Positions 12,897-60,427 of a stretch of DNA of 64,000 nucleotides are shown here, piece after piece (position 1 is the stretch's first letter; every line of letters begins with the position of its first letter). This stretch comes from Acidobacteriota bacterium. GTDB taxonomy: Bacteria; Acidobacteriota; UBA890; WLXD01. Both the position numbers and the translations under genes were made by a program. The notes below the pieces were generated by a model. It was given only the letters and a program-made list of their open reading frames with translations, was not told the DNA's origin and did no database searches. The stretch covers positions 256,001 to 320,000 of the forward strand of contig CBDBHB010000006.1 in the NCBI GenBank assembly GCA_965205505.1, given 5' to 3'.

Positions 12897-12966
12897 GCAC
12901 GGGTGAGACGGACGCGCAGATGGGGCTTCCGATCAGACGACCATTTCCACCTGGCGAAGACCGAAG

Positions 12967-13054
12967 CTAGCAGGCCAGGGACAGTGGGCCCGTGGGCCCG
13001 ACGGAGGCAGGAGGGTGCGCCGCCGTCGGGCTCCACGACCCGCTGGTGCGCTAG
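12967..13054. repeat. Degenerate CTAG-bounded inverted-repeat element
   Basis: Starts CTAGCAGGCC like the 14680 element, has an internal IR (GTGGGCCCGACGG / CCGTCGGGCTCCAC) and ends at the CTAG that forms the stop of the FimT-like gene. Confidence 0.5.
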
Positions 13055-13572: not shown

Positions 13573-13862
13573 CGCTCGTTGCCCCCTCCTGGAGAATCGC
13601 CTCCAGAGCCCGGCTCGTCCGGGTCCCCGGTGGTCGAATCTGCTGCTGATAGAAGGCAGTCTAGGGATGCGATCGCCAGACTCAGCAGCCCGTTCGCGGC
13701 CGCGCGGGGATGTCCCCCGTCATGTACAGCACAGGCGCGGAAGCGACAGGTCTGGTGCGGCTTCCGCCGTCCTCATCAGGTCGCCCATCGACACGGTTGG
13801 CCAGGGGCGGCCACCCTTCAACCTCGGCGCGCCCGCTCGGCGCCAGAAGAAAGGGTCGGCCT

Positions 13863-41055: not shown

Positions 41056-41999
41056 TCGGCTGGGGCGCCCGTTCCGCGACCTCGCAGCTGCAGGCGTTGG
41101 CGGAGCGCGTGGGCGCCCCGGTGGCGACCACGCTCCAGGGGCTCAGCGCGTTCCCGGCCGACCACCCTCTGCACGTCGGCATGGGCTACGGTAACTCTGC
41201 GGTTCCCGCGGCAAGGTCGGCGTTCGCCGAGTGCGATTGCTTGCTCGCTGTCGGGGTCCGTTTCGCCGAGCTCGCCACCGGCAGCTACGGCATGCGGGTG
41301 CCTGCCGATTTGATCCATGTCGATATCAACCCGGCCGTGTTCAGTCGCAACTACGAGGCGGCAGTCGCCATCGAGGCCGATGCGACGGCGGCCCTCGATG
41401 CCCTGCTGGAGCTTTTGCAGGAGACTCTGCCGGAACCGCGCGATTGGGGGGAGCGGCGGCGGTTGATTCGTTCCGAAAAGGAGGCGTTCGCTGCGTCCTG
41501 GACCGCGGAGCGTAGTAACGAACGCGTCAGCCCGGGCATTTTCTTTCGGGCGCTCCGCGGCGCCCTCGATCGCGACGCTTTTCTCGTGGTCGACGATGGC
41601 AACCACACGTTCCTGGCGGCCGAGCAGTTCCCCGTATACGCGCCCGGCCGGTTCCTGTCGCCGACCGATTTCAACTGCATGGGGTATTGCGTCCCGGCGA
41701 CGATCGGCGTGAAGCTCGCCAACCCGGACGCGCAGGTGGTGTCGGTGGTGGGCGACGGGGGCTTTCTGATGACCGGGCTGGAGATCCTGACGGCGGCTAC
41801 CTTGGGGCTCGGAGTGATCTTCTTCGTTTTTCGTGACGGGGAGCTGGCGCAGATCTCCCAGTTCCAACAGCTACCGCTCAACCGCAAGACCTACACGGTG
41901 CTCGGCGAACTTCATGTCGAGGGGGTGGCGACAGCGACGGGGGCGGCATTCGCGCGGTTGGCTACCGATGCCGACGTCGACGCCGTGATAGAGCCCTGA
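41046..41999 (+). pseudogene. Truncated TPP-dependent enzyme (acetolactate synthase-like)
   Basis: Frame opens at YVGWGA...APVATT (central domain) and has the GDGGFLMTG TPP motif; the N-terminal Pyr domain is absent and it ends abruptly at VDAVIEP*. Confidence 0.8.
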
Positions 42000-42088: not shown

Positions 42089-42418
42089 CTACTGTCCGGC
42101 GCGACCGTACTCGGCGCGGTAGTGGCGCAACCGCTCTAGCACCATTTCGTAGTTGGCTCGCTCAGCCTCCGGCACGTCGAGCGCGGTGTCGCTCAGCGAC
42201 ACGGACATCCACGAGATGTTGGCGTCGAGCAGCTCCAGCGCCAGCTGTGGGTCTGCCTGGCGAATCGATCGAGCCGCGCTGAGGGATACCTTCGCCTCGC
42301 TCATTCCCGAGACCACCGAGTGGTACTCGAAGCCTCGATACCAGCCCCAAACGTATCCGCCGTAGGCTGCGCTGCAGGAGATCGCTATGAACGCAATGAC
42401 GGCGAGGGCTCTTTTCAT
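42089..42418 (-). CDS. Hypothetical membrane/secreted protein
   Basis: GGAG RBS, MKRALAVIAFIAI hydrophobic N-terminus, 109 aa. Confidence 0.55.
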   Translation of the reverse strand: MKRALAVIAFIAISCSAAYGGYVWGWYRGFEYHSVVSGMSEAKVSLSAARSIRQADPQLALELLDANISWMSVSLSDTALDVPEAERANYEMVLERLRHYRAEYGRAGQ

Positions 42419-42602
42419 GGGTCTCCAGCAGGAAGCACCGGCGGCTCGAAACGGGAATTCGCGATTCCGGTAGGTTGCGCAACGATAGTCCATCGCTCCC
42501 TTGCGGCCCAACCCGCATGCGCCAGAGCGGTGGACTGGCGCGGCCTCCGTGCGTCACGGCATCACGAGCGGCTAGACTGGCTGGGGGTCCCCACCAGTCG
42601 AT

Positions 42603-43611
42603 GTGACGTTGATGCCGAAGAAAAGACTCCACGTGAACGTCTCGCTGTTCGCCGCGATGCTGCTCCTGACGCCGGCTGTGGCTCGTTCGACGCCGTCGGC
42701 GCTGCGGCCGCAGGTGGAGTCCGTCTCGGAGCTCGAGGCGCTGCTCGACGTCATGAGCCGGGTAGCGGGGCTGTACCGCGACAACGCACTGAGCTTCACG
42801 TGCGTGGAGCGCATTACCGATACCCGCTATAGGGTCCGGAATCGGGTGGCACAGCGAACGACGCACCTCTTCGACTACTTCTACGTCTTCGAGAAGGTGC
42901 CTGCCACCGACATCATGCGCGTCGATGATGCTGCCACGGCGGATGTTGACGCGGCGCCGACGGCGGGCACCCCTGCTGGGCGGCTGCAAGACTACCGGAC
43001 GGCACGCGGCAGGCAGGACGACGGCGCGGCGCGGCGAATCCTGCTGGGCGACATCGGGTTGCCCGCATATCTCGAGCGCGCCTACTCGTGGGTCTTCATT
43101 TTCCAGCCTGGCCTTCGCGAGTACTTCGACTTCGCCCTGGAGGGTCGAGACGAGATCGACGGACGGCCTGCCTTCGTGGTGCGGTTCGATCCGCGGGCGC
43201 CGTACCAGGCCGGTCTGAACGACTGGTTCGGCCGCGCCTGGATAGACGCCGATCGATACCAATTGTTGCGCGTGGATGCGGTGCAGTCGCAAGAGGTGTT
43301 GGCGGTCCTGCGGGCAGCGGACGCCGTACCGGTGGCCCCATTGGGGGGGTATCTGTTCACGTGGGCGCGGTCGGACTTCGAGCAGGACACGAACGGCATG
43401 CGGTTCCCGAGCCGGGCGATGCTTATCGGCACCGGGCGTTAGCTTGGCGCAGCCGAGCGACGACAACTATCGAGCAACAGCAGCGGAAATGCTGCGTGAC
43501 GGCATCGCCCACGACCGACTCTTCCGGGTTGAGCACCGGTACAGCGACTACCGTTTCTTCCGCGTCAGGACGGCGACGGAGATCGATCTGGCGCTCGCTC
43601 GACCCCAGTAA
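42603..43611 (+). pseudogene. Hypothetical secreted beta-rich protein, apparent +1 frameshift at ~43435
   Basis: Signal peptide, LSFTCVERI, GRAWIDADRYQLLRV, NGMRFPS. The terminal EHRYSDYRFFRV strand is in another frame; ACCGGGCGTT appears to carry an extra G. Confidence 0.6.
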
Positions 43612-43667
43612 CCGGGCGCCACGCGTCGCAGGAGCTGGTCACACTCGAGCCGAGATACACCCTGACT

Positions 43668-44420
43668 TCAACGCGAGGTGAACACGTCGGCGGCGATCTC
43701 GCCTTCGATACGGGTGTTCGGGCGAATCACGTCGGCGAGCGTCGTGGCTTCGATCTCGGCCAGATGGGTGCCCTTGAAGGCTCGCTTGTAGAACAGACGG
43801 TCGGCGTCGCGCAACCCGTCGTGCCGCAGCCGTAGCAGTCGTGGCGACACCATGCTGTGGCCAAACCGGAAGGCGGCAGTCGAGAACTCGGTGCAGATCC
43901 CGGCGTCGGCGCGACGGTCCCAGCCCTGATATCGACCGACCGCTCTGCCGCCAAGCAGCCGCGGGAGAAACTCGTTGTAGGTGATCGCTTGCACGAGGCC
44001 GATCACCCTGGCGCGCGCTCGTGCGTAGATCCCGTCGCCCTCCAACCCCGGTGAAGCGTGGCGTATCAGCCGCGCCTGACGGTTGTGCTCGCGTGCCCAC
44101 AGCGTATGCATCGCCAGCAACGCGACGTTCTCGTTGGCGCGGATGTCGCCCGCCAGATAGAAGCTTCTCAGCGTGCCACCGGCGTTGGCGAGGCCGTCTT
44201 CGTTGAACGGCAGCATTCTGCCGTCGCTGGTCAGTAGCTCGCCGCTGCCGTCGTTGGTACGCAGAGCGCTGGCACGCGCCGCATCCGAGCCGTACACGTT
44301 GGAGGCGTCGATGTACGCCGTGATCTCGTTGAGTTGCTGACGCGGGTTGCCTGCGCCGCTACCCGAGGCCGGGTCGTAGATCGAGCGGTTGAAGCAGATT
44401 ACCCGCGTGCCGGTGCTGCT
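43668..44420 (-). pseudogene. Animal-type heme peroxidase remnant
   Basis: RQQLNEITAYIDASNVYGS, AGDIRANEN, HTLWAREHN, QAITYNEFLP, AAFRFGHS, LRDADRLFY, TLADVI. The N-terminus and a large internal block are missing. Confidence 0.85.
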
Positions 44421-44773
44421 TCTGCCGCCAGCAGGACGTTGTCGGCCGACGGTATGCCCCGGCCGTCCACTTCTCGTTAGCCGGAGGACCGGTCGGAACG
44501 GATCAGTGGACAGGGGCGGCCACGGGCGACGCCAGGCCGTCGGCAGCGGCCAGGAATTCCTGTCGCTGTTCGCCTCGAGCGGGGACTCGCTGCGTTGCGT
44601 GCTCCGAGCCGGCGTGCCGTGCTCCTTTGAATCCGATCGCCAGGCCCGCCGCACTTTCACCACGGCCTGATAGCGGCAGGCGACATGGTACGGTGGCTTG
44701 GCTCCAAGCGCAGTTGCTGCATCCAATAAGATGAGCTCACAAAGCTAAGAACACCAGAGACAAGAGAACGACG

Positions 44774-45013
44774 ATGGGCGACGATCGACACGGCCTGGAT
44801 CGGATCGAACTACGATCACCCGGCAACGCGCCGACGATGGTCCGAGCGGGCATGGCGCTGGCGGCAGTGCTGGCAGCTGTCCTGCTGGTGGCGATGTCCG
44901 TGCTGGGCACGACCGCGACCGTCAACGCGGCGTCGCATCCGACGATCCAGGCGCAACAGGCCGGCGACGCCGCTATCGCCGAAACGGTGAGCGTCGCCGA
45001 TTCCGAGCGTTGA
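44774..45013 (+). CDS. Small hypothetical exported protein
   Basis: Hydrophobic signal-like segment ending VNA-AS; TTGA overlap with the next gene. Confidence 0.35.
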   Translation: MGDDRHGLDRIELRSPGNAPTMVRAGMALAAVLAAVLLVAMSVLGTTATVNAASHPTIQAQQAGDAAIAETVSVADSER

Positions 45014-46608
45014 GCGCCACCCACGACGCGATCGTTATCGGGGGCGGCCACAACGGCCTTGCCTGCGCCGCCTACTTAGCCCGTGCGGGCATGGACGTCC
45101 TCGTACTGGAACGCCGCCATGTACTCGGCGGGGCCGCCGCCACCGAGGAGCCTTGGCCCGGCTACAAGATCTCGTCGGCGGCGTACGTCACGAGCCTGGT
45201 GCCGCCGCGCATCATCTCCGAGCTCAACCTCGATCGCTTCGGCTACAAGGTCTCGATTCTCTCGCCCGACTACTGGGTGCCGTTCGACGACGGCACCGCG
45301 CTAACGCTGCATGGCGACGCCGGCCAGACCGCCGCCGAGATCGCGCGGTTCTCCAAGGCCGACGCCGCCGCCTACCTGAAGTTCGACGAGTACTTCGAGC
45401 ATATCGGCAACCTCGTGCGCGACCTGCTGTTCGTGGTGCCGCCGCGGCTGGAGTGGCGGGAGATACCCAAGTGGCTGTCGCTCGGCCGGCGGTTCCGGCA
45501 CTGGACGGCGCGCGACATCGCCGAAGTCACGCGGCTCTTCACGCTTTCGGGCGCGGACTTCCTCGACGAATGGTTCGAAGATGAGCGCGTCAAGGGCGCC
45601 ATGGCCACGCAGACCATCATCGGCGGGTGGGGTGGGCCCATGAGCCCGGGTTCCGCGTACGTGCTCATGCACCACTGGATCGGTGAGATCGACGGCCAAT
45701 CGGGTGCCTGGGGATGGGTGCACGGTGGCATGGGAGCGCTGAGTCAATCGATCGCCGACTCGGCTCGCGCCGCCGGTGCAACCGTGCGCGCCGAGGCGCC
45801 GGTCCGCCGGATCGTCATCCAGGACGGCAGGGCATCTGGCGTCGAGCTCGAGAGCGGAGAGGTGCTCCACGCGCGGCAGGTGATCTCGTGCGCCCATCCG
45901 GTAACCACCTACTTCGATTTGGTCGGCAAGGAGAACCTTCCTGACGAGGTGGTCGCGGACGTTGGCCGGTATCGCAGTCGCTCCGGCTCGGTGAAGGTCA
46001 ACCTAGCGCTCTCCGAGCTACCGAAGCCGACCGCTTGGAAAGGACCGATTCCCGGGGACCCCCATACCGGGCTGATCGCTATCTCGCCGTCGGTCGAGTA
46101 TCTCGAGCGCGCTTGGGACGACGCGAAGTACGGTCGCACGTCCGAGCATCCCTATCTCGAGGCGGTATTCCCCACGGTGCACGAGCCCGGTCTGGCCCCG
46201 GACGGCAAGCACATCGGGCTGTTCTTCACGCAGTTCGGCCCGTATCACCTCAGGGAAGGCTCGTGGGATACCGAGCGCGAGGTCTACGGCCGCCGGATCC
46301 TTCGCAAGATGGAGGAATACTGCCCCGGCTTCGAGGCTTCCGTCGAGCACATGGAGGTGCTGGCGCCGCCTGACATCGAGGAGCGCTTCGGCCTGCTAGG
46401 GGGCAACATCTTCCAGGGCGACATGGCGCCCGATCAGCTTTTCTGCTTCCGTCCCATTCCGGGCTACGGGGACTACCGGTCGCCGGTCAAGAGCCTGTAT
46501 CTGTGCGGCTCCGGCACCCATCCGGGCGGCGGCGTCATGGGTGTGCCCGGCCGCAACTGCGCTCAGGTCGTCGGTCGCGATGCCCGGCGCCGCTGGTTCG
46601 GCAGGTAG
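45010..46608 (+). CDS. Phytoene desaturase-family FAD oxidoreductase (PYROXD2-like)
   Basis: GGGHNGL, LERRHVLGGAA, GSAYVLMHH, GGMGAL, GGNIFQG, LYLCGSGTHPGGGVMG. Confidence 0.9.
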   Translation: MSATHDAIVIGGGHNGLACAAYLARAGMDVLVLERRHVLGGAAATEEPWPGYKISSAAYVTSLVPPRIISELNLDRFGYKVSILSPDYWVPFDDGTALTLHGDAGQTAAEIARFSKADAAAYLKFDEYFEHIGNLVRDLLFVVPPRLEWREIPKWLSLGRRFRHWTARDIAEVTRLFTLSGADFLDEWFEDERVKGAMATQTIIGGWGGPMSPGSAYVLMHHWIGEIDGQSGAWGWVHGGMGALSQSIADSARAAGATVRAEAPVRRIVIQDGRASGVELESGEVLHARQVISCAHPVTTYFDLVGKENLPDEVVADVGRYRSRSGSVKVNLALSELPKPTAWKGPIPGDPHTGLIAISPSVEYLERAWDDAKYGRTSEHPYLEAVFPTVHEPGLAPDGKHIGLFFTQFGPYHLREGSWDTEREVYGRRILRKMEEYCPGFEASVEHMEVLAPPDIEERFGLLGGNIFQGDMAPDQLFCFRPIPGYGDYRSPVKSLYLCGSGTHPGGGVMGVPGRNCAQVVGRDARRRWFGR

Positions 46609-46785
46609 GCGGGCGGGCAGTGGGCGAACCCATAGTGCGCTGTCCGGTTGACGCTTGCTGCCACCTACCGCGTAGCTCCGTCCAGAGCGACCTGGGCTGC
46701 CGACGGCCGGTGCTAGACTCCGGCGCCGTTGCCGCAAGGCAACCGCGCAGGCGACGCGAATGTGCACCAGCCAAGGAGGTACCGA

Positions 46786-47883
46786 ATGGAGGTGAGAGCT
46801 GCAGTTCTCGAGGAACCGGGCGCCGAGTTCAGCGTCGGCCCCGTGGACCTGGACGAGCCACGCGGCGATGAGGTCCTCGTCAAGGTTGTTGCCACCGGCA
46901 TCTGCCACACGGATCTGTCAGTGCGCGATCAGTACTATCCGGTGCCGCTGCCGGCAGTTCTCGGCCATGAGGGTGCCGGCATCGTGGAGCGCGTCGGCTC
47001 CGACGTCATCAAGGTCAAGGAAGGCGATCACGTCGTCCTGAGCTTCCACTCATGCGGCGCCTGCGGGAACTGCAAGCAAGGCTCGCCTGGGTACTGCCTG
47101 GAGCTGTTCGGGCACAACTTCGGCGGCGCTCGGCCCGATGGGTCGCCGGTGATGCACCGCGGAGACGATGTCGTCCACGGCGCTTTCTTTGGCCAGTCGT
47201 CCTTCGCCGACTACGCGCTGGCCTTCGAGCGCAACGTCGTGAAAGTACGCGAGGACGCGCCGCTCGAGATGCTCGGCCCGCTCGGCTGTGGGATCCAGAC
47301 GGGAGCCGGAACGGTGCTGAACAACCTGCATCCCAGGGCCGGCCAGAGCATCGCGGTCTTCGGCGTCGGTACCGTCGGTCTGTCGTCGGTCATGGCAGCC
47401 AAGATCGCCGGCTGCGATCCGATTATCGCCGTCGATCTGAACGTCAAGCGACTGAGCCTCGCCGAGGAGCTCGGCGCGACGCACGCGATCAATGCCTCTG
47501 ACGCCGATCCGGTCGAGGTGATTCAGGAGCTCACCGGCGGTGGTGTCAACTACTCGGTCGAGGCGACCGGCGTCCCCGAGGTGGTGCGTCAATCGGTGGA
47601 CTCGCTCGGACTCCTGGGCGTTTGTGGCCTGCTGGGGACCTCGCCGCTAGGAACGGAGATCACCCTCGATATGAACGCCATCTTGTTCGGCCGCACCGTC
47701 CGCGGTGTGATCGAGGGTGACGCGGTGCCGGATCTGTTCATTCCGCAGATGGTCGACATGTACATGGCGGGCAAGTTCCCGATCGATCGCCTGATGGAGT
47801 TCTACAGCCTCGATCAGATCAACGAGGCGGTCGCAGCGACCGAGGGCGGAGGCACCGTGAAGCCCATCCTACGAATGGGCTGA
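46786..47883 (+). CDS. NAD-dependent Zn alcohol dehydrogenase (aryl/allylic alcohol DH type)
   Basis: AAGGAGG RBS, GICHTD, GHEGAG, CGACGNC...C, FFGQSSFA, GPLGCGIQTGAG, IEGDAVP. Confidence 0.93.
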   Translation: MEVRAAVLEEPGAEFSVGPVDLDEPRGDEVLVKVVATGICHTDLSVRDQYYPVPLPAVLGHEGAGIVERVGSDVIKVKEGDHVVLSFHSCGACGNCKQGSPGYCLELFGHNFGGARPDGSPVMHRGDDVVHGAFFGQSSFADYALAFERNVVKVREDAPLEMLGPLGCGIQTGAGTVLNNLHPRAGQSIAVFGVGTVGLSSVMAAKIAGCDPIIAVDLNVKRLSLAEELGATHAINASDADPVEVIQELTGGGVNYSVEATGVPEVVRQSVDSLGLLGVCGLLGTSPLGTEITLDMNAILFGRTVRGVIEGDAVPDLFIPQMVDMYMAGKFPIDRLMEFYSLDQINEAVAATEGGGTVKPILRMG

Positions 47884-47889
47884 GGGAGA

Positions 47890-49410
47890 TCACGGGTCGA
47901 GAGCGCTCAGCTCACGCCGCATGATCTTGCCGGTGCTGGTCTTCGGCAGATCGTCGACGAACTGCACCGTCCGCGGCACCTTGTACGCAGCCAGGTGCTC
48001 TCGGCAGTGGCTGACGATCGCCGCTTCGTCCCCGTTCGCGCCTTTCTTGAGAACCACGTAAGCCTTGGCTGTCTCGCCCTTCATTTCATCCGGCTGACGT
48101 CCTACGGCCACCATGGCGACGTCAGGATGCGCCGCGACGACGCGCTCGATCTCCGCCGGGTACACGTTGTAGCCGCCCGTGAGGATCATGTCCTTCTTGC
48201 GATCGACGATGGTGACGTAGCCATCGGCGTCCATGCTGGCCAGGTCTCCGGTGTGCAGCCAGCCATCCGGCTCGATGGTCTCGGCGGTCCCCCGCTCGTT
48301 GCCGTAGTAGCCCTGCATGACGATCGGGCCGCGCGCCATCAGCTCGCCGACCTGACCACGTGGCAGGGTCTGGTTCGCGTCGTCCACTGCCGCTATGCGC
48401 ATCTCACAGCTGGGCAGCGAAACACCGATCGAGCCGTGCTTGTTGAGCCCATACCGTAGGTTGGTGGTGCCAAGCCCGGCGAGCTCCGTCATTCCCCAGA
48501 GCTCGATGAGCGGGCAGCCGAAGCGTTCCTCGACCTCCCGCATCTTGTTGACCGCCATGGTCTGGCCGCCGACCGTGCAGCAGGTGAGCGACGACAGATC
48601 GTAGTTGACCAGCCCTGGGTGATCCAACAGGTACAGATACATCGTCGGCACACCCTCGAATATGGTGGCGCCGTGGTCTTGGATCGACTGCAAGATTTCG
48701 TCCTGCACGAACAGCGGATGTAGAACTAGCTTCATGCCAACCATGAAAGCGGCGTTGAAGATGACGTTGCCGTATACGTGCGGACACGGCAGCGCCGTGA
48801 CGATGGTGTCTTCGGCGGTGCGCACGTGCATGTTCGCCAACAAGGCGGCGTTGATGATCACGCTCCGGTGGCTTTGCATGGCGCCCTTCGGGTGCCCCGT
48901 GGTGCCCGAGGTATAGCAAATCGTCGACAACGCGTCGGCCGGTACCTCGCGGACCTCGAAGCCGGGTTCGTTGCTCTCGACGAGCTCGTTGAACGACCGC
49001 GCATCGGCGGGGACCTGGTCGCCGAAGACGATGATCTCCTCGACGTCGGAGGAGTCCTTGAGGCCGAGGATCGGTTCCCCTTTTTCTTTCGAGGCCAACA
49101 CCGCCTTTGCGCCGCAGTCGGCGGCTACGAACGCGACCTCCTCCGGGGTCAGCATCACGTTGATCGGATTGATCACCGCCCCGGTCTTGAGCGCTGCGTA
49201 GTAGCTGACGATCCACTCCCAGCGGTTGGCGGAGTACAGCGTCACGCGATCTCCGGGCGTGATTCCGAGCGTCTCCAGACCCTTTGCCAGGCGATCGGAT
49301 AGCTCATTGAGGTCGCGGAACGAGAACCTCTTGTCCCCGGACACCAGCGCGGTCTTCTCGCCGTACTTCACGGCAGCGGCGGGCAGGATCTCTCCGAGCG
49401 AGGTCAGCAT
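47890..49410 (-). CDS. Acyl-CoA synthetase (AMP-forming, FadD-like)
   Basis: YTSGTTGHPKG, WGMTE, GWLHTGD, DRKKDMI, LPKTSTGK. Start approximate. Confidence 0.93.
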   Translation of the reverse strand: MLTSLGEILPAAAVKYGEKTALVSGDKRFSFRDLNELSDRLAKGLETLGITPGDRVTLYSANRWEWIVSYYAALKTGAVINPINVMLTPEEVAFVAADCGAKAVLASKEKGEPILGLKDSSDVEEIIVFGDQVPADARSFNELVESNEPGFEVREVPADALSTICYTSGTTGHPKGAMQSHRSVIINAALLANMHVRTAEDTIVTALPCPHVYGNVIFNAAFMVGMKLVLHPLFVQDEILQSIQDHGATIFEGVPTMYLYLLDHPGLVNYDLSSLTCCTVGGQTMAVNKMREVEERFGCPLIELWGMTELAGLGTTNLRYGLNKHGSIGVSLPSCEMRIAAVDDANQTLPRGQVGELMARGPIVMQGYYGNERGTAETIEPDGWLHTGDLASMDADGYVTIVDRKKDMILTGGYNVYPAEIERVVAAHPDVAMVAVGRQPDEMKGETAKAYVVLKKGANGDEAAIVSHCREHLAAYKVPRTVQFVDDLPKTSTGKIMRRELSALDP

Positions 49411-49563
49411 CTCGACGTTCTGGTACAACGGGCACGGAGCGTAAGTCAAACGGAGGGTGGAGGGACCCTTGACGGTTTCGGAGGTCGGAAACTAGTCTCG
49501 ACAGACACCCTGCGTCTCAGTCTTCGGCCCATCTCGAACTGCACAGCACCCTGGAGCGGCACC

Positions 49564-51210
49564 ATGCGGCATCGCGTCCTACCAATCTCTGTTCTCTGCG
49601 CGGCGCTGGTCGGTGCGCAGCCGGTCGCGCCCCCGGCGGGCGCGGCCATCCTCGCCTCCGACTATCCCTCGCTGTCTACCGAGGAGATGGGGCACGTCCG
49701 CCACATGATCAACCTCGCCAATCAGCTCGACGGCGACTGGTCGCTGATGGGCAACACGCCGGGTGGCAACAACTTCGACGCCTACCAGTTCCAGATCGCC
49801 TTTGCCACCTACGCACTGAGCCTGGCGCAGTACCACAAGGTGCCGGCGCATCGGGACCTCTACCGAGACGCGTCGAGGCGGCTCATCGAGAAGATGATCT
49901 ACAAGGACGTCTGGCAGTACTGGGCGCGCATGAGCCAGTACGAGAAACGCGGTGCGGACCAGGACGGCAACAGCTCCGTGTATCGCGAGGATGGCTGGCA
50001 AGGATGGATCGATCCCAACATCAAGTCGAACATCATGTACAGTGGTCACCTGCTGCAGATGGTCAGCCTGCACGAGTCGCTGTTCGACGACCATCGCTAC
50101 GATGATCCCGGATCTCTGCCGTTCGTGTTCCCGGCGATCGAATACGGCGGCGAGCCGCTGCGCATGGACTACGACCACCAACGGCTGGCGACGGTGATCT
50201 ACGACCAGTTCGTTGCCAGCGACTTCCTCGGCATTGAATGCGAGCTCGGCGCCATCTACACCGAGTGCAACCAGCATCCGATCCTCGGCCTGATCCAGTA
50301 CGACCAGACGCACGGGACGGACTACTCGGCCGAGGTCGAGCAGGAGTTCGCCAAGACGATCCACGAGCGGGAATTCATCTCGCCGGAGAACCACACGACG
50401 ATGTTCTACCTCCACGTGCGCTCCGACGAGGTGATTCCGGCGTCGACCAAGTGGTCATCGACCGGCATGGCCTGGAGCGACGGCTGGAACGGACAGGCAC
50501 ACCACGTCTGGGCCCCGCAGTACGTCAAGGACCTGTATCGCGAGCAAGTGAAGCTCTACATCCCGGGCATGTTCCAGGGTGAGCCCGGCTCCGACATGGG
50601 CTGGACGTCGTCGTTCGATTTCGGCTGGTTCGCGGTGCTGGCGGCCGAGGTCGGCGACATGAAGACCGTCGCCACCATGCTCGAGTACGCCGACGAGCAC
50701 TTCGGGCCTACCTGGCGTGACGGCGGCCTCTATTACCCGCACACGCCCGATTACCGAGAGAACTTCAACCGCGACGAGAACGGTTTCATCCACAACATCA
50801 GCCCAGTCACCGGCAACGTGCTGGTGGCGATGGCGCGCCTCAACCCTGGCGACGGTCTGTGGACGCTGTACAACCAGCCGTGGGAGGAGGAGCACTTCGC
50901 GGAACCGTTCGTTAGCGGCGTGGAGTACATCGAGGCTAATGTCACGCAGGCGATCTACGATCGCGAGGAGGCGGCTCTGATCGTCACGCTGGCGCCCGGA
51001 CCGGTGGAAACGGACAGCACCACCTTCACGATCAACCAGCTCGATCCAACGATCTCGTACTCGATATACAAGGATGGCCGCCACCTCGGCGACCTGAGCA
51101 GTGGATCTACGAACAGAGTGGCGGGGATCCTGTGGAACTTCGACGGTACTCTGACGATCTCCACCGAGCTCGACGAGGCGCATAGCTTCGTGGTGGCCGC
51201 CGATCGGTGA
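49564..51210 (+). CDS. Secreted linalool dehydratase/isomerase-family protein
   Basis: Signal peptide; YQFQIAFATYAL, KMIYKDVWQYW, DPNIKSNIMYSGHL and GIECELGAIYTECNQH, which recall LDI DPIEKENIMYKGHL and GIVCEPDNYFVQCN. Confidence 0.85.
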   Translation: MRHRVLPISVLCAALVGAQPVAPPAGAAILASDYPSLSTEEMGHVRHMINLANQLDGDWSLMGNTPGGNNFDAYQFQIAFATYALSLAQYHKVPAHRDLYRDASRRLIEKMIYKDVWQYWARMSQYEKRGADQDGNSSVYREDGWQGWIDPNIKSNIMYSGHLLQMVSLHESLFDDHRYDDPGSLPFVFPAIEYGGEPLRMDYDHQRLATVIYDQFVASDFLGIECELGAIYTECNQHPILGLIQYDQTHGTDYSAEVEQEFAKTIHEREFISPENHTTMFYLHVRSDEVIPASTKWSSTGMAWSDGWNGQAHHVWAPQYVKDLYREQVKLYIPGMFQGEPGSDMGWTSSFDFGWFAVLAAEVGDMKTVATMLEYADEHFGPTWRDGGLYYPHTPDYRENFNRDENGFIHNISPVTGNVLVAMARLNPGDGLWTLYNQPWEEEHFAEPFVSGVEYIEANVTQAIYDREEAALIVTLAPGPVETDSTTFTINQLDPTISYSIYKDGRHLGDLSSGSTNRVAGILWNFDGTLTISTELDEAHSFVVAADR

Positions 51211-51977
51211 TCCAACGAGCCGCCATAGATCGGTACGTCCTGCTGATCGTCTCCGTGACCTTGTTTGCGGCGTGCAACGACGCGGTCGAACGACCGGACC
51301 ACGACCCGCAGACCGAAGAGCTGGTACGTCAGTACCTGACGGACAACCCAGGGTTCCTGCTCGACAATCCCGAGCTTCTCGCAAACGTTCGGGTGGCGGG
51401 GCAGGCGCGCGATGAGCAGCGTGACGCGGAGGCGCGCCGGGCGATTCTCGACGCCCGCGCCGACATCGTCATTGACCCGGAGCTGACCCCGACGATCGGC
51501 TCGACAGGCGCATCGGTAACGATCATAGAGTTCTCCGACTACCAGTGCGCGCCGTGCAAGGCGAGCTATCCGGAGATCGCGGCGGTGGCCGCATCTGACG
51601 GTGACCTGCGTCTCGTTCATAAGCAGCTGCCGGTGTACGGGAGCCACTCGGTGCTCGCCGCTCGGGCGGCAACGGCTGCTCATCGGCAGGGAGGCTTCGT
51701 TGGGTTCCACGACGCGCTGATGACCACCATGACGCCGCTGACCGCGGAGCTTGTCTACGCTACTGCCGATGATCTGGGACTCGATGTGGACGCGCTCCGG
51801 CGAGACATGCGGGATCCGCGACTGATCGAGTATCTCGCCGCCGTCAAAGAGCTCGCCGAAGCGCTCGATATCGACAGCACACCGACCTTCATCGTTGGCG
51901 ACCATCTCGTCCGCGGCGGTCTGAACGCCGAGCTGCTGCGGGAGTTGGTGCAGAAGCAACGCGCTGTGGATGGCTGA
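51207..51977 (+). CDS. DsbA-family (Com1/ScsC-like) thiol-disulfide lipoprotein
   Basis: LFAAC lipobox, VRQYLTDNP helix, EFSDYQCAPCK, cis-Pro STPTF; GTGA overlap with the upstream gene. Confidence 0.88.
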   Translation: MIQRAAIDRYVLLIVSVTLFAACNDAVERPDHDPQTEELVRQYLTDNPGFLLDNPELLANVRVAGQARDEQRDAEARRAILDARADIVIDPELTPTIGSTGASVTIIEFSDYQCAPCKASYPEIAAVAASDGDLRLVHKQLPVYGSHSVLAARAATAAHRQGGFVGFHDALMTTMTPLTAELVYATADDLGLDVDALRRDMRDPRLIEYLAAVKELAEALDIDSTPTFIVGDHLVRGGLNAELLRELVQKQRAVDG

Positions 51978-52079
51978 TTGCGTTGCAACTGCCTGTCCCG
52001 CACATAGCTTTGCTGTTCGCCAACCCCCTCGGCGCGGTGCGCGTTCCGGCCAGCCGGTCAGTGAACTCCCGGCGTTGCC

Positions 52080-52193
52080 TCAAGGCCCCTAGCTTCGAAG
52101 AGTACCTGGTGGCCGGGCGCGATGACGACGCCGATCCTGGTTTGCACGTTGGCGTCTACCTATTACGGCCTCGACGTGCTGTTCGGTACGTGA
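52080..52193 (+). pseudogene. Sodium:solute symporter N-terminal remnant
   Basis: FEEYLVAGR, then in a shifted frame MTTPILVCTLASTYYGLDVLFGT*, resembling the SSS DYFLAGR motif and following helix. Confidence 0.5.
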
Positions 52194-52197
52194 GGCC

Positions 52198-52329
52198 ATG
52201 AACGGTTGGGACCTGTTTACCTGGATCAACGCGCTAGTGCTGGCGGCGAGCGCGGTAGTGATCTTTGCTTACTTCTTACGTGACGCCCGCGCAGTACTCG
52301 GGCGTCAGGGGCGTGACCACGATGAGTGA
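52198..52329 (+). CDS. 43-aa single-TM small protein
   Basis: GAGG RBS; MNGWDLFTWINALVLAASAVVIFAYFLRDARAVLGRQGRDHDE*; overlaps the MOSC start; below the ORF track cutoff. Confidence 0.65.
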   Translation: MNGWDLFTWINALVLAASAVVIFAYFLRDARAVLGRQGRDHDE

Positions 52330-52876
52330 GCTCGCTGGGTCGGTCGTATCCGTCCACAGTGGTGACCATGTCGACTTGCACAAAGAAGAGCAGCCGGAAG
52401 TTCAGGCGCAGCTCGATGGCTTCGTCGGCGACAAGCACCGCGGCTACTCGCGTGTGGCCTTCGCGGGCGACATCGATCCGGTGGGCACCGTGCGGCGAAA
52501 CGAGCGTCAGTGGTCAGCAGTGTCGATCGAGGAGCTCGAGGTAGTCGCGCAGCGGATGGATCTGCGGGAGCCGCTCGCCGCCTCGACGCTGGGAGCAAAC
52601 CTGTGCTTCCAGGACATCCCAGATCTGTCCGGGCTGCTGCGGGGTACACGCTTACACTTTCCTTCCGGAGCCGTCTTGCGCGTCGAGGAGTGTAATCCGC
52701 CCTGCGTCGAGATGGGGGACCAAATTGCCGCCGCCTACACCACCCACGCCGGTGGTCCGGTGGTCGCCGCCATGTTTCCCAAACACGCGCTGAACCTGCG
52801 CGGCGTGGTCGGGGTGGTCGACGTGCCCGGCCCCATCAGGGCGGGTGACCGCGTGGTAGTCAGATCGGCGCCGTAG
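52322..52876 (+). CDS. MOSC domain protein
   Basis: GFVGDKH, RQWSAVSIEE, LGANL, NPPC, RGVVGVVDVPGPIRAGD. Confidence 0.88.
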   Translation: MSELAGSVVSVHSGDHVDLHKEEQPEVQAQLDGFVGDKHRGYSRVAFAGDIDPVGTVRRNERQWSAVSIEELEVVAQRMDLREPLAASTLGANLCFQDIPDLSGLLRGTRLHFPSGAVLRVEECNPPCVEMGDQIAAAYTTHAGGPVVAAMFPKHALNLRGVVGVVDVPGPIRAGDRVVVRSAP

Positions 52877-52912: not shown

Positions 52913-53646
52913 CTACTTGCGTACCAATGCGTCGAAGATAGCGTTGCGGATGCGCGGGGTCGGTCGGTCACGTAGCTCGGCGTCGTCGAGCGACTCGGCG
53001 ATCTTCATCAGCACCGTCGAGATACGCCGCGGTGCTCCACCGCCTTCGCGAGCCCGCGCACCAGTCGGGCGGGATGAAGGGCGGCAACCTCGGCAAGAAA
53101 CACGCCGCCATAGTTTCGCGCCGTACGGATGTGCGAGGCACATTCCTGCGGTTCCATCCAGCGCACTTCGTCGTCGGTGGCTCCGAGCGCCCGCCAGTCG
53201 TCGAGCTCTTCCCTGACGTGCGCGTGGAACATTTTCGAGGTGGCGATGGTGATATTGCCCCCTTTGGCCCAGTTGCAGTCGATCTCCTCCTGTACACAGA
53301 CACGCCCGACCTCATCGACGGTGTTGAACAGCGCCCGCTGCAAACGAATCGCGCCGTTGCGCTGAGCTGGATCGTGCAGCAGCTGGCCGATGCCGGCCAT
53401 GGTGCCGAGACACCATCCCCCGTTGCGGCCCGACGCCCCGAATCCGGCGATCTCGGCCTCGAGGATGGCTATACGGATGCCGGGCTGACGCTCAGCGAGG
53501 TAGTACGCGGTCCACAGCCCGGTGAACCCGGCACCGACGATAACGACATCTACTCGCTTGTCGGTGGTCAGGCCGGGGCGCGGCGCCAGCGGCTCTGGAA
53601 CCGTGTCGTGCCAGAAGCTGAGGTTGCGGTACTCGTTAGCCGACAC
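52913..53646 (-). pseudogene. DadA/PuuB-like FAD oxidoreductase with large internal deletion
   Basis: SFWHD, GAGFTGLW, GASGRNGG, LHPARLVRGLA; stops after 212 aa, with a C-terminus-like tail (ISTVLMKIAESLDDAE...) joined out of frame. Confidence 0.78.
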
Positions 53647-53679: not shown

Positions 53680-55392
53680 TCAAGGTCGCTGCTCCAGATC
53701 TCGCCCGAGCGCCTCGATGCGCGTCGCTTCGTCGAGACGGCCGAGGGCGCGCAGCTCCGCAGCCAGCACCGGGTAGGTCGAAAAGCGCCCGGGGTTGAGC
53801 CGCCGCGCGCGCTCCAGTGCCACCACCGAGCTCTCGTGGTTGCTGAGCGCGGCGTACGTCATACCGAGGTTGAAGGCAACGAGCCAGTCGTCCTGCGCTA
53901 GCTCGGCGGCGCTCTCGAACAGCTCGAGCGCTCGCTCGAGGTTGTCCTGGCGAAAGTAGTACAGCCCCTGGATGTTGGCGAGGCCGATCTGCGTCACGCG
54001 GTTGGTCTCCAGCTTCTCCTGTTCGTCTGCGGCGGTGAGCGTTCGGTAGCGTTCCATCAGCTGCCGGCTCTCGTCGGTCTTGCCACGATCCCGCAACACC
54101 AGCGCTAGCGTGTAGTAGCCCTCCAGTAAGTCGGGGTTAAGCTCCAGAGCCCGTCGGCAATACGTCTCGGCAGCGGCGAGGTCGCCCATTTCTCGACGCA
54201 CCCGACATAGCTCCTTGTGCGCTAACGGGCTGCGCGGCACGGCACGGATGGCGCGGGTCAACAGCTCATCGGCGACCTCCGGCTGGTTGCGCTTGACGTA
54301 GATGTCGGCCAGACGAATGTAGGCGCTGATCCCCCGGCGGCGAAGCTCGATGGTGCGCTCGTATTCGGTGATCGCCGTCTCGTATTCGGTAATCGCCGTG
54401 TCGAAATCGCCCTGGTTGTCCGACATGACGGCGAGCTCGAGGTAGGAAGGTCCGGCGGCCTGTGGTCCCTCGGCAGCGCGGAGAAAAGTGGCCCGCGCCT
54501 CGGTGTAGTTGCCCATCTGCAACTGCATCCGCCCCTTGAGCAGGTAGAGCCGCGGATCCTCGATGCCGGCTCGCTCGCAATCTCCGATCAAGCTCACAGC
54601 CTGCTCCGGGAGGTACAAGCGTCGATACGCACGGCTGAGCGCCAGGCAGCTATCGCCTTCGTGCGGGCGCTGTTCGAACACCTTCTCGAACGCCTCGGCG
54701 GCCTTCAACACCGCCTCGAGTTCAGTGCCGTGCTCGCTCAGGAGCCGCCCTAGCAGCAACCAGGCGTCGGTCGTCTGCGGCGCAACGGCCACACATTCCT
54801 CAAGCTCTATGATGGCTTGAGCGTGGTCGCCGAGCGCCGCGTAGGCGAGCGCCAGGCCGTAACGCGGCAGCGCTACCTCCGGATTCAGCCGCGAAGCGGC
54901 GCGCAACCAGTTGATCGCTTCCTCGTGCCGCCCGACCCGGAGCAGGGCGATGCCGAGGTTGAACTGGGTGACGAACAAGTCGGGCGCCAACTGGGCTGCC
55001 TGGCTCAGCAGCGGCAACGCTTCGTCGGAGTACCCGAGCTCGAGCAAGGACCGTCCAACCTGGCTGCGCGCGATGGGGTCGTCGGGCTCGAGCACCAGGG
55101 CGCCGTCGAACGCCTCCAGCGCTTCCTGGAAATCACCGTTCTGCAGCGCCGCGGCGCCGGCCAGCAGCAGAGTCTGGAACTCGTTCAGCTCCGCTGGGGG
55201 AGCTTGGTCCTGGGTGTTGGCGAGTACCCCCGACGATCCGAGGCTGCCCGTCGCCGGGGCCGGGGGGGCCGCCGGGTGCAGACCCACCAGCACGCCGAGC
55301 GCGCCCGCAACCAGGATCGACCGGTGCCAGAAGTTGATTGTCGTGAATCGAGTCAAACTGTGTTGATCCGCCATCGGGCTGCCTCTCGACAT
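53680..55392 (-). CDS. Exported multi-TPR protein
   Basis: N-terminal hydrophobic segment and many TPR units (FNLGIAL...A...A...NP). Confidence 0.85.
   Translation of the reverse strand: MSRGSPMADQHSLTRFTTINFWHRSILVAGALGVLVGLHPAAPPAPATGSLGSSGVLANTQDQAPPAELNEFQTLLLAGAAALQNGDFQEALEAFDGALVLEPDDPIARSQVGRSLLELGYSDEALPLLSQAAQLAPDLFVTQFNLGIALLRVGRHEEAINWLRAASRLNPEVALPRYGLALAYAALGDHAQAIIELEECVAVAPQTTDAWLLLGRLLSEHGTELEAVLKAAEAFEKVFEQRPHEGDSCLALSRAYRRLYLPEQAVSLIGDCERAGIEDPRLYLLKGRMQLQMGNYTEARATFLRAAEGPQAAGPSYLELAVMSDNQGDFDTAITEYETAITEYERTIELRRRGISAYIRLADIYVKRNQPEVADELLTRAIRAVPRSPLAHKELCRVRREMGDLAAAETYCRRALELNPDLLEGYYTLALVLRDRGKTDESRQLMERYRTLTAADEQEKLETNRVTQIGLANIQGLYYFRQDNLERALELFESAAELAQDDWLVAFNLGMTYAALSNHESSVVALERARRLNPGRFSTYPVLAAELRALGRLDEATRIEALGRDLEQRP
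54358..54399. repeat. 21-bp tandem duplication (TAITEYE x2)
   Basis: CTCGTATTCGGTGATCGCCGT / CTCGTATTCGGTAATCGCCGT. Confidence 0.85.
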
Positions 55393-55396
55393 GGTT

Positions 55397-57757: not shown

Positions 57758-57797
57758 CAGGGCTCGTCGCTGATCAGCGGTGCGCAGGGGTCCATCG

Positions 57798-60251: not shown

Positions 60252-60427
60252 GATGGCTTGGAGTCGGCACCGGTCGATGAGGCCGAGCGGTGCGCGGCGC
60301 GGCACTCCGACCAGGGGTTGCCCGACGGGCATCCATGTAGTTTATAGGTGTACTGGGGCGGCTCACCAGATCGCCGGCCCGTGGATGCGAGGCGATCCTG
60401 CCGGTGAGGCTCAGACTTCGGTTGAGG

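Follow-up and report, generated by a model that had tools for sequence, protein, structure and literature searches.

The window analysed here is a stretch of 64,000 nucleotides from an Acidobacteriota genome assembly (GCA_965205505.1, contig CBDBHB010000006.1, positions 256,001 to 320,000). It carries a gene for a protein of the linalool dehydratase/isomerase (LDI) family, P0001, which is followed by a gene for a thioredoxin-fold lipoprotein, P0266, and preceded by genes for a flavoprotein, a zinc-dependent alcohol dehydrogenase (ADH) and an acyl-CoA ligase. The open reading frame (ORF) call on the window shows five intact genes at positions 45010–51977. We propose that together they make up a compact module for catabolism, centred on an LDI-family enzyme that is secreted, needs no cofactor, is kept reduced by its partner P0266 and feeds the ADH and the CoA ligase. 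This reading is given a probability of about 0.55. We commit to a reaction type for the module, namely allylic alcohol isomerisation or (de)hydration, followed by oxidation and CoA activation; among substrates, an isoprenoid alcohol or diene is the most probable. An earlier interpretation of the same DNA, termed here the sequence-only reading, had delimited the module at the same span and placed four of the genes correctly, but the fifth gene, that of P0266, was left undescribed.

The LDI-family protein P0001

P0001 matches the Pfam Ldi model (PF18566) with an E-value of 3.2e-78 and 263.9 bits (cut-off 26.1), and the match extends over profile positions 1–315 of 318. When P0001 is compared with PDB sequences by phmmer, Castellaniella LDI chains alone are found (8 distinct sequences, E 1.2e-13), and a profile made from 138 homologs also finds LDI chains only (8 distinct sequences, best E 2.3e-52). 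The AlphaFold2 model of P0001, computed on the 138-homolog alignment, has a pLDDT of 94.0 and a pTM of 0.93. Foldseek matches to this model at ranks 1–27 are all Castellaniella LDI (E about 1e-13, TM-score on the target 0.74–0.78, 22% identity); matches from rank 28 onward have E-values of 1e-7 or weaker and target TM-scores of 0.21–0.48, and consist of a phage tail protein followed by barrels of the glycoside hydrolase types GH127, GH9 and GH76. A Protein Atlas look-up of P0001 returns Ldi-family clusters only. Sequence and model together show P0001 to be a member of the Ldi family, with a predicted (alpha,alpha)6 barrel as in Castellaniella LDI. The sequence-only reading had called the protein an LDI homolog on the basis of two motifs, and had proposed a profile search and a superposition on LDI as checks. 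Its assignment agrees with the Pfam match over the whole domain and with LDI as the top fold; the catalytic cysteine pair aligns at the sequence level, and both quoted motifs are present in the translation.

The residues that align with the LDI active site are highly conserved. C226 and C235 align with C171 and C180 of LDI in PDB numbering (i.e. C170 and C179) in both the phmmer and the profile alignments, while phmmer aligns M158 and H162 with LDI M125 and H129, such that NIMYSGHL of P0001 lies opposite NIMYKGHL of LDI. Among the 138 homologs, C226 is found in 137, C235 in all 138, M158 in 128 and H162 in 109; in 21 homologs H162 is replaced by Tyr. H129 of LDI presumably has a catalytic role, and the structure of an LDI M125A mutant is listed in the PDB.

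The cysteine content of P0001 is simpler than that of LDI. The only cysteines are at positions 12, 226 and 235, and the first of these is in the predicted signal peptide, which would leave the mature protein with the catalytic pair alone. Exactly two cysteines beyond residue 35 are present in 80 of the 138 homologs. LDI is described as having a C48–C101 disulfide that caps the substrate channel and is said to be essential, and C170/C179 as having to stay reduced (PMC6600392). In the profile alignment, the cysteine of the LDI KMKCK sequence, which is one half of the capping disulfide, aligns with Y113 of P0001.

Two further properties that the sequence-only reading had pointed out, a signal peptide in the absence of a multi-transmembrane anchor and a beta-rich C-terminal extension, are in keeping with the present results. 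By inspection, two basic residues (R2 and R4) at the N-terminus precede a hydrophobic core, residues 8–17, and a likely cleavage site after V-G-A. Only one hydrophobic 19-mer window is found in the protein, and this is at the N-terminus, which argues against a multi-transmembrane anchor; pLDDT values fall to 49–57 at residues 1–20. Signal-like N-termini are found in 121 of the 138 aligned homologs. P0001 thus looks to be Sec-exported and periplasmic, as judged from these N-terminal features. The C-terminal extension is a beta-sandwich in the confident model, and when modelled alone it retains a pLDDT of 92.9. Foldseek finds no PDB match to it at E ≤ 0.001, the best being a phage tail protein at E 0.0097. 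The beta-sandwich is found throughout the subfamily of ~540–560 aa proteins and is absent from Castellaniella LDI.

The thioredoxin-fold partner and conserved neighbours

The GTG start of the P0266 gene overlaps the stop codon of the LDI-family gene by 4 nt (GTGA), an arrangement that shows, at the level of sequence, translational coupling of the two genes. P0266 has a lipobox (L-F-A-A-C23), an active site C114-A-P-C117, a Thr225-cisPro226 loop and a putative N-terminal helical region. Pfam assigns it to Thioredoxin_4 (E 5.7e-18) and DSBA (E 3.2e-14), and NCBIfam, with a weak match, to a thioredoxin-like lipoprotein family. The phmmer matches in the PDB include 3gyk (E 1.4e-28) and 7rgv (E 7.5e-26), as well as the ScsC structures 4xvw, 4gxz, 6nen, 6mhh and 7jve (E 4e-16 to 6e-12). 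The N-terminal region of P0266 aligns with 7rgv from residue 34 and with 4xvw from residue 50.

P0266 resembles CcScsC and PmScsC (4xvw, 7jve) in its DsbA-like fold, CXXC site, Thr-cisPro loop and predicted envelope location, and perhaps in its N-terminal region, which may be helical. It differs in having a CxPC site, in being a lipoprotein, and in being tied to one client enzyme and not to scsB or copper-stress operons. In 24 aligned partners from LDI loci, the CxPC site is invariant, the Thr-cisPro is invariant or near-invariant, and the N-terminal consensus is LLxHPExVLDDPE; the corresponding motif of P0266 reads LTDNPGFLLDNPE (LTDNPG vs the consensus LLxHPE). The hinge motif of CcScsC-type proteins is seen in most partner orthologs. 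It is the EHPE motif that Cho et al. used to define CcScsC-type proteins (PMC3322552). These authors describe CcScsC as held reduced by ScsB and as acting in a reductive pathway (PMC3322552). CcScsC is also described as a trimeric isomerase that binds Cu(I), and StBcfH, a ScsC relative with an N-terminal extension, as an oxidase as well as an isomerase (PMC8900818).

How widespread is the pairing of these two genes? The neighbourhoods were collected by one motif-based scan of genome contigs, using motifs of the ~550-aa subfamily, which yielded 77 loci with flanks of up to 8 kb on each side. One locus (L019) is a duplicate of another (L009), and the 76 distinct loci together with the window make up the 77 sources in which ORFs of 90 aa or more were compared all against all and clustered. 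Cultured carriers among the loci include Luminiphilus sp. nBUS_07, Pseudohalioglobus sediminis NY5, Sphingomonas colocasiae JCM 31229, Sphingobium phenoxybenzoativorans SC_3, Undibacterium terreum and Kutzneria viridogrisea DSM 43850. Cluster representatives were named by Pfam and NCBIfam. Certain clusters were treated as shadows of other genes and excluded from the neighbour counts. One of these, c30 (523 aa, no Pfam match), looks like the antisense shadow of an aldehyde dehydrogenase (ALDH) gene, e.g. L055 5961–6680 (−) lies inside an ALDH gene at 5836–7263 (+); the others, c13 and cluster 1, lie across LDI genes but are read in a different frame.

The thioredoxin-fold gene is the most conserved partner of the LDI homolog. 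Such a gene is found within 250 nt of 43 of the 77 LDI-homolog ORFs, and it belongs to one of three families: ScsC-like (27), SCO1/SenC (13) or TlpA-like (3). All but one of the 43 are on the same strand as the LDI homolog, and a 4-nt overlap is frequent. By tblastn, matches to P0266 itself are found in 30 of 77 loci. A few SCO1/SenC-like partners appear to begin at the catalytic domain itself, so that the called ORF has no signal sequence (L033:1877–2383, L056:9613–10134, L059:9503–10018 and L061:9509–10024). These might represent either miscalled starts or cytoplasmic pairs.

The other genes of the module recur to different extents. The Zn-ADH has tblastn matches in 21 of 77 loci, at 45–94% identity (56–62% in most of the non-acidobacterial loci, 45% in one locus), and the acyl-CoA ligase in 23; in 17 of these 23 the match reaches at least 46% identity and extends over at least 250 aa. 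The flavoprotein, as well as the MOSC protein and the peroxidase that are encoded nearby in the window, are each matched in two loci, which are acidobacterial only (L001 and L002 for the flavoprotein). Clustering places ScsC-like proteins in 29 of the 77 sources, the Zn-ADH in 22, the ligase in 22 and TonB-dependent receptors in 19. ADHs of the type dependent on pyrroloquinoline quinone (PQQ), with a cytochrome c domain, are found in 15 sources, as are SCO1/SenC proteins; Cupin_3 proteins, a 640-aa flavoprotein and ALDHs are each found in 11, DAO-family oxidases in nine, TlpA-like redoxins in seven and amidohydrolases resembling histone deacetylases (HDAC-like) in six.

Gene order also varies. 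With ACS for the ligase, Scs for the ScsC-like partner and TBDR for the TonB-dependent receptor, the order in the window is ADH> ACS< LDI> Scs>, and orders elsewhere include PQQ> LDI> Scs> ADH> TBDR> ACS>, ADH< LDI> Scs> and ADH> ACS> ALDH ... LDI>. The ADH/ligase association therefore spans at least four gene orders, and it spans several deep clades and phyla. That 21 of 77 loci have a member of this ADH subfamily no more than 8 kb away is, by an informal estimate and not a formal test, far above chance. A survey of this type had been put forward with the sequence-only reading, and the association of LDI homologs with ADH and ligase genes that it anticipated is seen in these loci (21 and 23 of 77, respectively).

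The 640-aa flavoprotein, which is gammaproteobacterial, was considered as a recurrent CrtI-type partner and rejected. With the flavoprotein of the window it shares only the FAD-binding motif (BLASTP E 0.001, 46 aa), and it is a close homolog of the spermidine dehydrogenase SpdH of P. aeruginosa (7d9f, E 1.6e-157). The SpdH homolog is found ~2–4 kb upstream of the LDI homolog in L026, L028, L029, L034 and L046 (representative L046:3660–5582), and is followed by a conserved 144-aa ORF with no known family and then by a PQQ/cytochrome c dehydrogenase gene.

A proposed route and its competitors

The ADH, ligase and flavoprotein assignments of the sequence-only reading are consistent with the database matches. 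The ADH has the Pfam domains ADH_N and ADH_zinc_N, and its PDB matches are 5tnx (E 4.7e-135) and the Acinetobacter benzyl alcohol dehydrogenase 1f8f (E 1.6e-124), which fits the aryl/allylic type that had been named. These alignments begin at residue 21, and the true start may lie ~15–20 codons downstream. The ligase, which is divergent from the LDI gene across a short spacer as had been described, is full length, with AMP-binding covered at 3–384 of 384 and AMP-binding_C at 1–76 of 76. It scores 475.1 bits against PRK06187 (cut-off 476), and its best PDB match is the feruloyl-CoA/fatty-acyl-CoA synthetase 8wev/8weu (E ~6e-73). The flavoprotein, previously termed phytoene-desaturase-like, matches the Pfam families Amino_oxidase, DAO and NAD_binding_8, the NCBIfam models CrtO (285 bits, cut-off 1000) and crtI_fam (148.6 bits, cut-off 238), and in the PDB best of all CrtI (4dgk, E 2e-22).

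P0001 and Castellaniella defragrans LDI (LinD; 5hlr, 5g1u, 5i3t; EC 4.2.1.127 / 5.4.4.4) share the Pfam Ldi domain, the (alpha,alpha)6 barrel, a cysteine pair with C-x8-C spacing, the Met/His motif NIMY-x-GHL, a Sec-type signal and periplasmic location (predicted for P0001), and the presence nearby of an ADH, which in the window may be of the GeoA type, and of a CoA ligase. We take GeoA to be of the benzyl alcohol dehydrogenase type. P0001 is the longer protein (548 vs 397 aa), with the ~100-aa beta-sandwich as an extra. The Castellaniella enzyme is described as cofactor-free, periplasmic, O2-sensitive and in need of a mild reductant such as dithiothreitol (PMC6600392, PMC6013536). P0001 also has a translationally coupled thioredoxin-fold partner, and the text of the Castellaniella account that was compared (PMC4109377) mentions no thioredoxin. 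A distant relative of LDI is the linalool isomerase (Lis) of Thauera linaloolentis, which is described as reductant-dependent and as acting in linalool catabolism via geraniol; it has 644 aa, four N-terminal transmembrane helices and a cytosolic catalytic domain (PMC4791888). Compared by description, P0001 is unlike Lis in having a signal peptide and no transmembrane anchor, and in having its extension at the C-terminus and not at the N-terminus.

The gene content invites the same comparison. The Castellaniella island is reported to contain LDI, GeoA, GeoB, the perillate-CoA ligase GeoC and CtmAB, a limonene dehydrogenase of COG1233 that resembles phytoene dehydrogenases (PMC4109377, PMC3490891); GeoA belongs to the medium-chain dehydrogenase/reductase (MDR) group (PMC3490891). 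Four gene types are thus shared with the window, i.e. the COG1233 flavoprotein, the MDR Zn-ADH, the acyl-CoA ligase and LDI, although by type and not by orthology. In the window they are within five adjacent genes, whereas those of Castellaniella are part of a 70-kb island, and the window cluster has no GeoB-type ALDH, ferredoxin or ring-cleavage genes. Among the loci surveyed, the flavoprotein link is found in Acidobacteriota only (2 of 77).

In the proposed route, P0001 would be exported via Sec to the periplasm, where it would protonate a tertiary or primary allylic alcohol to give an allyl cation. Water would then be re-added at the other end, i.e. a 1,3-hydroxyl shift that converts a tertiary to a primary alcohol; alternatively, the enzyme might interconvert alcohol and conjugated diene, as LDI does. 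P0266, or an SCO1/SenC- or TlpA-like protein in other lineages, would keep the catalytic cysteines as thiols, or restore them to thiols, under the oxidising conditions of the periplasm. The primary allylic alcohol would enter the cell and be oxidised by the benzyl-alcohol-type Zn-ADH; an ALDH encoded elsewhere in the genome would produce the acid, which the acyl-CoA ligase would activate for a beta-oxidation-like breakdown. By analogy, this downstream topology matches that of Castellaniella, where a periplasmic LDI-type step is followed by cytoplasmic NAD-type ADH, ALDH and CoA ligase steps. The CrtI/CrtO-like flavoprotein can be looked at as a lineage-specific add-on that may dehydrogenate, hydroxylate or saturate beside a C=C bond, as CtmAB does with limonene.

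The role assigned to P0266 follows from several considerations. TlpA/ResA-type proteins with a CxPC site are reductants, and DsbG and DsbC, which protect single catalytic cysteines, offer a comparison for the role of the partner. As the catalytic pair is the sole cysteine pair of mature P0001, it is the only possible client in that protein of an adjacent thiol-disulfide oxidoreductase. A single client pair, the occupation of one slot by three different thioredoxin-fold families and the reductive precedents lead us to infer that the partner keeps the thiols reduced. Contact between the two proteins was also modelled. The prediction for P0001 (residues 29–548) with P0266 (residues 24–256) scores 0.34 (runs 0.39, 0.34 and 0.07), vs 0.00 for the best of 3 controls, with ≥ 93% agreement in contacts between runs and a partner pLDDT of ≥ 87. 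In the benchmark for this score, the mark is reached by 116 of 157 solved complexes and by 2 of 215 mismatched pairs, and those that reach it with scores ≤ 0.60 are only 18 of the 157 solved complexes plus both mismatches that passed. The prediction lends weak support to a P0001–P0266 contact.

Several points weigh against the proposed module. P0001 is only ~22% identical to Castellaniella LDI, its phmmer E-value is modest, and the C48–C101 capping disulfide of LDI has no counterpart in P0001, as seen from the alignment and the cysteine count. The ~550-aa subfamily is known from sequences and models, from which its function is deduced. LDI is a homopentamer in which the neighbouring subunit completes the active site, and P0001 was modelled as a single chain. 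With respect to the partner, the reducing direction of its action is drawn by analogy, P0266 has DNPG where most partners have EHPE, some relatives with an N-terminal extension, such as StBcfH, act as oxidases as well as isomerases, and an electron donor of the ScsB, DsbD or CcdA type is not among the conserved neighbours in the 77 sources. A thioredoxin-fold neighbour is lacking for 34 of the 77 LDI-homolog ORFs. Contig ends are the setting in L008, L018, L034, L041 and L074, but a Bacteroidota/Ignavibacteriota clade, Gemmatimonadota, two Terriglobia and a few Proteobacteria have full flanks and yet no such neighbour. By tblastn, the ADH is absent from 56 and the ligase from 54 of the 77 loci. 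As the sequence-only reading had stated, there is no ALDH gene in the window: tblastn with one ALDH, that of L055, gives no match at E ≤ 1e-3, and the Aldedh domain is absent among the 48 window ORFs scanned. Flanks elsewhere contain genes for the SpdH homolog, HDAC-like amidohydrolases, DAO oxidases, an amidase (L020) and PQQ dehydrogenases, in addition to alpha/beta-hydrolases, a PhyH-family dioxygenase, a P450 and several short-chain dehydrogenases/reductases (SDRs). Of these, the SpdH, HDAC-like, DAO and amidase genes are unlike what is expected of a plain terpene route.

These flank genes raise the question of whether the same enzymology acts on a non-isoprenoid substrate, such as another allylic or a benzylic-allylic alcohol of the cinnamyl or coniferyl type, or a compound bearing an amine or amide that needs amine oxidases and amidohydrolases. 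We consider this possible, if less probable than an isoprenoid route. The nearest solved relatives of the ADH are benzyl alcohol dehydrogenases, the PDB matches of the ligase are feruloyl-CoA synthetase and 4-coumarate-CoA ligases, and the ALDH representative matches aminobutyraldehyde, betaine-aldehyde and phenylacetaldehyde dehydrogenase models best, all below the cut-offs. Amine-related neighbours are not rare either, with the SpdH homolog in 11, DAO in nine and HDAC-like proteins in six of the 77 sources, and the amidase in L020. However, the known chemistry of the family is confined to terpenoid allyl alcohols and small analogues, the Castellaniella island has the same gene types in a terpene route, and amine-related genes are absent from the window except for a DAO fragment. 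The ADH subfamily of the window presumably also includes GeoA-type enzymes. Because the ADH and ligase families fit cinnamyl-type alcohols as well, and because of the amine-related genes in the flanks, the reaction type is asserted here and the substrate class is put forward less strongly. The terpenoid or apocarotenoid route of the sequence-only reading therefore stands in its association with ADH and ligase, but not as to an established substrate class, and its flavoprotein is linked in just 2 of 77 loci.

A second competitor concerns P0266, which might be an oxidase or isomerase that forms a C226–C235 disulfide, either structural or as an on/off switch, or else a Dsb protein that serves the envelope in general and is not specifically linked to P0001. 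Pfam does place it in DSBA/Thioredoxin_4, oxidase activity is described among its trimeric relatives, no electron-donor gene is conserved nearby, and LDI function in E. coli is reported to need the periplasmic Dsb machinery (PMC6600392). We nevertheless regard this as unlikely, given the adjacency in 43 of 77 cases through three thioredoxin-fold families, and the disulfide that Dsb proteins would make in LDI has no equivalent in P0001. The TlpA/ResA-type reductants also speak for a reducing partner. So do the reductive, ScsB-dependent CcScsC (PMC3322552) and the requirement of LDI for a reduced catalytic pair (PMC6600392).

Copper offers a third explanation, and an improbable one. The partner would shield the thiols from periplasmic copper, or would load Cu(I) on a Cys/Cys/Met/His site, in which case P0001 would be a metalloenzyme unlike LDI. 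The handling of Cu(I) involves all three partner families (ScsC, SCO1/SenC and TlpA), SCO1/SenC and TlpA-like partners account for 13 and 3 of the 77 genes, and CcScsC is reported to bind Cu(I) with subpicomolar affinity and Scs proteins to confer copper tolerance (PMC8900818). In addition, C226, C235, M158 and H162 are typical soft-metal ligands, and TonB-dependent receptors are frequent neighbours. The putative metal site, however, is based on residue types only, and in 21 of 138 homologs a Tyr takes the place of its histidine; the conserved neighbours in the 77 sources include no gene for a copper oxidase, CopA or a CueO-type protein, and LDI is described as cofactor-free (PMC6013536).

Least probable is that the genes are neighbours by chance or through assembly of an island. 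The LDI homolog would then act independently of the ADH and ligase, e.g. as a glycoside-hydrolase-like protein with a barrel and beta-sandwich layout. Structural matches that follow LDI do include barrels of the GH127, GH9 and GH76 types that carry a beta-sandwich at the C-terminus, the C-terminal domain of P0001 has a weak resemblance to glycosidase accessory or carbohydrate-binding-module-like domains (E 0.01–0.1), and most loci have no ADH or ligase. However, glycoside hydrolase matches are at E 1e-5 or weaker with TM-scores ≤ 0.5 (vs E 1e-13 and 0.75 for LDI), sugar transporters and kinases are absent from the conserved neighbours, and the ADH subfamily recurs across phyla and gene orders at a frequency that we estimate to be far above chance.

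The locus, its surroundings and the family at large

The features of the locus are listed in Table 1.

Table 1. Positions of genes and sequence features at the LDI-family locus of the window
Feature	Positions	Strand	Basis
CrtI/CrtO-like (phytoene-desaturase superfamily) FAD flavoprotein, 532 aa	45010..46608	+	Pfam, NCBIfam, PDB
Zn-dependent medium-chain ADH, benzyl/aryl-allyl alcohol type, 384 aa, cytoplasmic	46729..47883	+	Pfam, PDB
Acyl-CoA ligase (AMP-binding), 519 aa; convergent with ADH gene, divergent from LDI gene	47890..49449	-	Pfam, PDB
Divergent ligase/LDI intergenic region, 114 bp; GGAG 7 nt before LDI ATG	49450..49563	.	Sequence
LDI-family protein P0001, 548 aa	49564..51210	+	Pfam Ldi, AlphaFold2, Foldseek
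Sec signal peptide (predicted), residues 1-19, probably cleaved after V-G-A	49564..49620	+	Inspection
NIMYSGHL motif, residues 156-163	50029..50052	+	phmmer alignment to 7ad2_A/5hlr_A
Putative catalytic Cys pair C226...C235 (C-E-x7-C-N)	50239..50268	+	Alignments to LDI
C-terminal beta-sandwich, residues ~449-548 (predicted)	50908..51207	+	DSSP strands 449-546
ScsC-type (DsbA-like) thioredoxin-fold lipoprotein P0266, 256 aa	51207..51977	+	Pfam, NCBIfam, PDB

A promoter and terminator scan of positions 44700–52400 gives 0 promoter-like and 3 terminator-like sites, not above the level in shuffled sequences, and the LDI/ligase intergenic region has no sigma-70-like promoter match that exceeds shuffles. 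Operon boundaries therefore cannot be drawn from the scan.

The region is syntenic with two contigs of Acidobacteriota metagenome-assembled genomes (MAGs) at 75–90% nucleotide identity, and the stretch from flavoprotein to partner is collinear with both at 83–85%. The source organism had been thought a probable acidobacterium, and this synteny fits. The surroundings had also been described as full of remnants, and fragments of peroxidase, DAO and thiamine pyrophosphate (TPP)-enzyme genes are indeed found nearby. An animal-haem-peroxidase remnant lies in the ORF at 43354–44726 (−), where the fragment 43668–44726 covers Pfam profile positions 123–328 of 530; relative to L001, ~446 bp are gone at window position 43816. 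Upstream of this remnant, a 434-aa ORF (42162–43466) has no family match. The DAO fragment (53008–53646, −) is inverted and covers profile positions 1–164 of 353. Between the ScsC-like and MOSC genes, L001 and L002 hold one or two full DAO-family flavoprotein genes, which in L001 are at 10504–11955 and 12775–14157. A DAO gene directly follows the partner gene in both, and the interval from partner to MOSC gene is longer than that of the window by 1.7 kb in L001 and by 5.5 kb in L002. The full genes in these relatives and the fragment in the window indicate that the gene was lost from the window module.

The TPP-enzyme fragment (41097–41999) is missing its N-terminal domain. Other ORFs that look truncated are at 18987–19838, a sigma-54 activator without its C-terminal part, and at 23978–24721, a T2SSE ATPase with profile coverage of 13–213 of 370. 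The sigma-54, T2SSE and TPP fragments are within or beside a cluster resembling type IV pilus/type II secretion system genes (~22–39 kb). Their truncation may reflect gene decay or assembly frameshifts.

An account from 2019 still gave LDI almost no neighbours in sequence space, Thauera Lis being the sole notable relative (PMC6600392). The sequence-only reading likewise spoke of few relatives, a statement that is now outdated. A homolog search finds 414 proteins homologous to P0001 at E ≤ 0.001; the 120 matches listed all have PF18566, most are of 520–570 aa, and they are named either 'hypothetical' or by the domain only. An exhaustive search finds 724 cluster representatives at E ≤ 0.001, a number that falls to 372 at E ≤ 1e-10 and to 95 at E ≤ 1e-30. 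Among the matches listed, the closest proteins are 91% and 83% identical and are from Acidobacteriota MAGs, as are the closest two genomic loci (90% and 87%). Homologs of ~550 aa occur in Acidobacteriota, Gamma- and Alphaproteobacteria, Myxococcota, Actinomycetota and others.

A maximum-likelihood tree of 72 homologs was made in quick mode and has long branches, and is thus used for the distribution of neighbours only. The window groups with L001 and L002 (support 100), inside a clade of 19 rows (support 100) whose members include Woeseiaceae, Halieaceae, Porticoccaceae, Myxococcota and other marine MAGs. A ScsC-like partner is present in every member of this clade but L008, where the contig stops 10 nt past the LDI gene. 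Several other clades also contain loci with ADH, ligase and ALDH neighbours.

Adding water to unactivated alkenes, removing it, and forming dienes such as isoprene and butadiene are the reactions for which LDI is valued, and its use is limited by oxygen sensitivity, reductant dependence and poor heterologous activity. What is newly recognised here is a large uncharacterised LDI subfamily of ~550-aa proteins with a reduced set of cysteines (in mature P0001, the catalytic pair only), an extra domain and a conserved candidate helper. If the partner keeps the enzyme reduced, co-expression would be a route to air-tolerant LDI-type biocatalysts. If the module is what we propose, it would mark an unrecognised sink for terpenoid alcohols or hydrocarbons in soils and the coastal ocean (Halieaceae, Porticoccaceae, Woeseiaceae). 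In the literature searched, outside of which were patents and subscription journals, no published description of the subfamily or of the LDI-thioredoxin pairing was found. A broader proposal would be that LDI-type chemistry, far from being peculiar to two anaerobic betaproteobacteria, is a widespread, oxygenase-independent means of activating isoprenoid dienes and tertiary allyl alcohols, with an obligatory co-translated thiol-reductase partner (ScsC, SCO1 or TlpA) that would let it work in an oxidising periplasm by keeping both catalytic cysteines as thiols. This is doubtful at present; it would cover substrates of the myrcene/linalool, nerolidol, isophytol/phytadiene and even isoprene/methylbutenol types, and its carriers would be aerobic bacteria from several phyla, living in the sea and in soil.

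Some loci have properties of their own. In a Pseudomonadales MAG (L005:2361–3482), genes for a PhyH protein, a luciferase-like monooxygenase and three SDRs are found just upstream of a PQQ-ADH/LDI/ScsC unit, and the PhyH context is a weak hint of branched-chain isoprenoid acids. The Bacteroidota/Ignavibacteriota clade (L067–L077, 26–28% identity) has no thioredoxin-fold, ADH or ligase neighbour. Its conserved context is a LuxR regulator with tetratricopeptide repeats (TPR), a response regulator and three families (299, 434 and 228 aa) with no Pfam or NCBIfam match. Two divergent LDI-family paralogs are found per neighbourhood in L033, L035, L039 and L049, and L027 and L028 are ~15 kb apart on OZ242169.1. 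Such neighbouring paralogs belong to separate clades of the tree and have probably undergone subfunctionalisation.

Downstream of the module, the window contains two tandem genes that combine a sulfatase domain with a long C-terminal TPR array, at 55397–57832 (−; 811 aa) and 57798–60332 (−; 844 aa). Further TPR proteins, encoded at 53680–55440 and 60404–61954, adjoin this pair.

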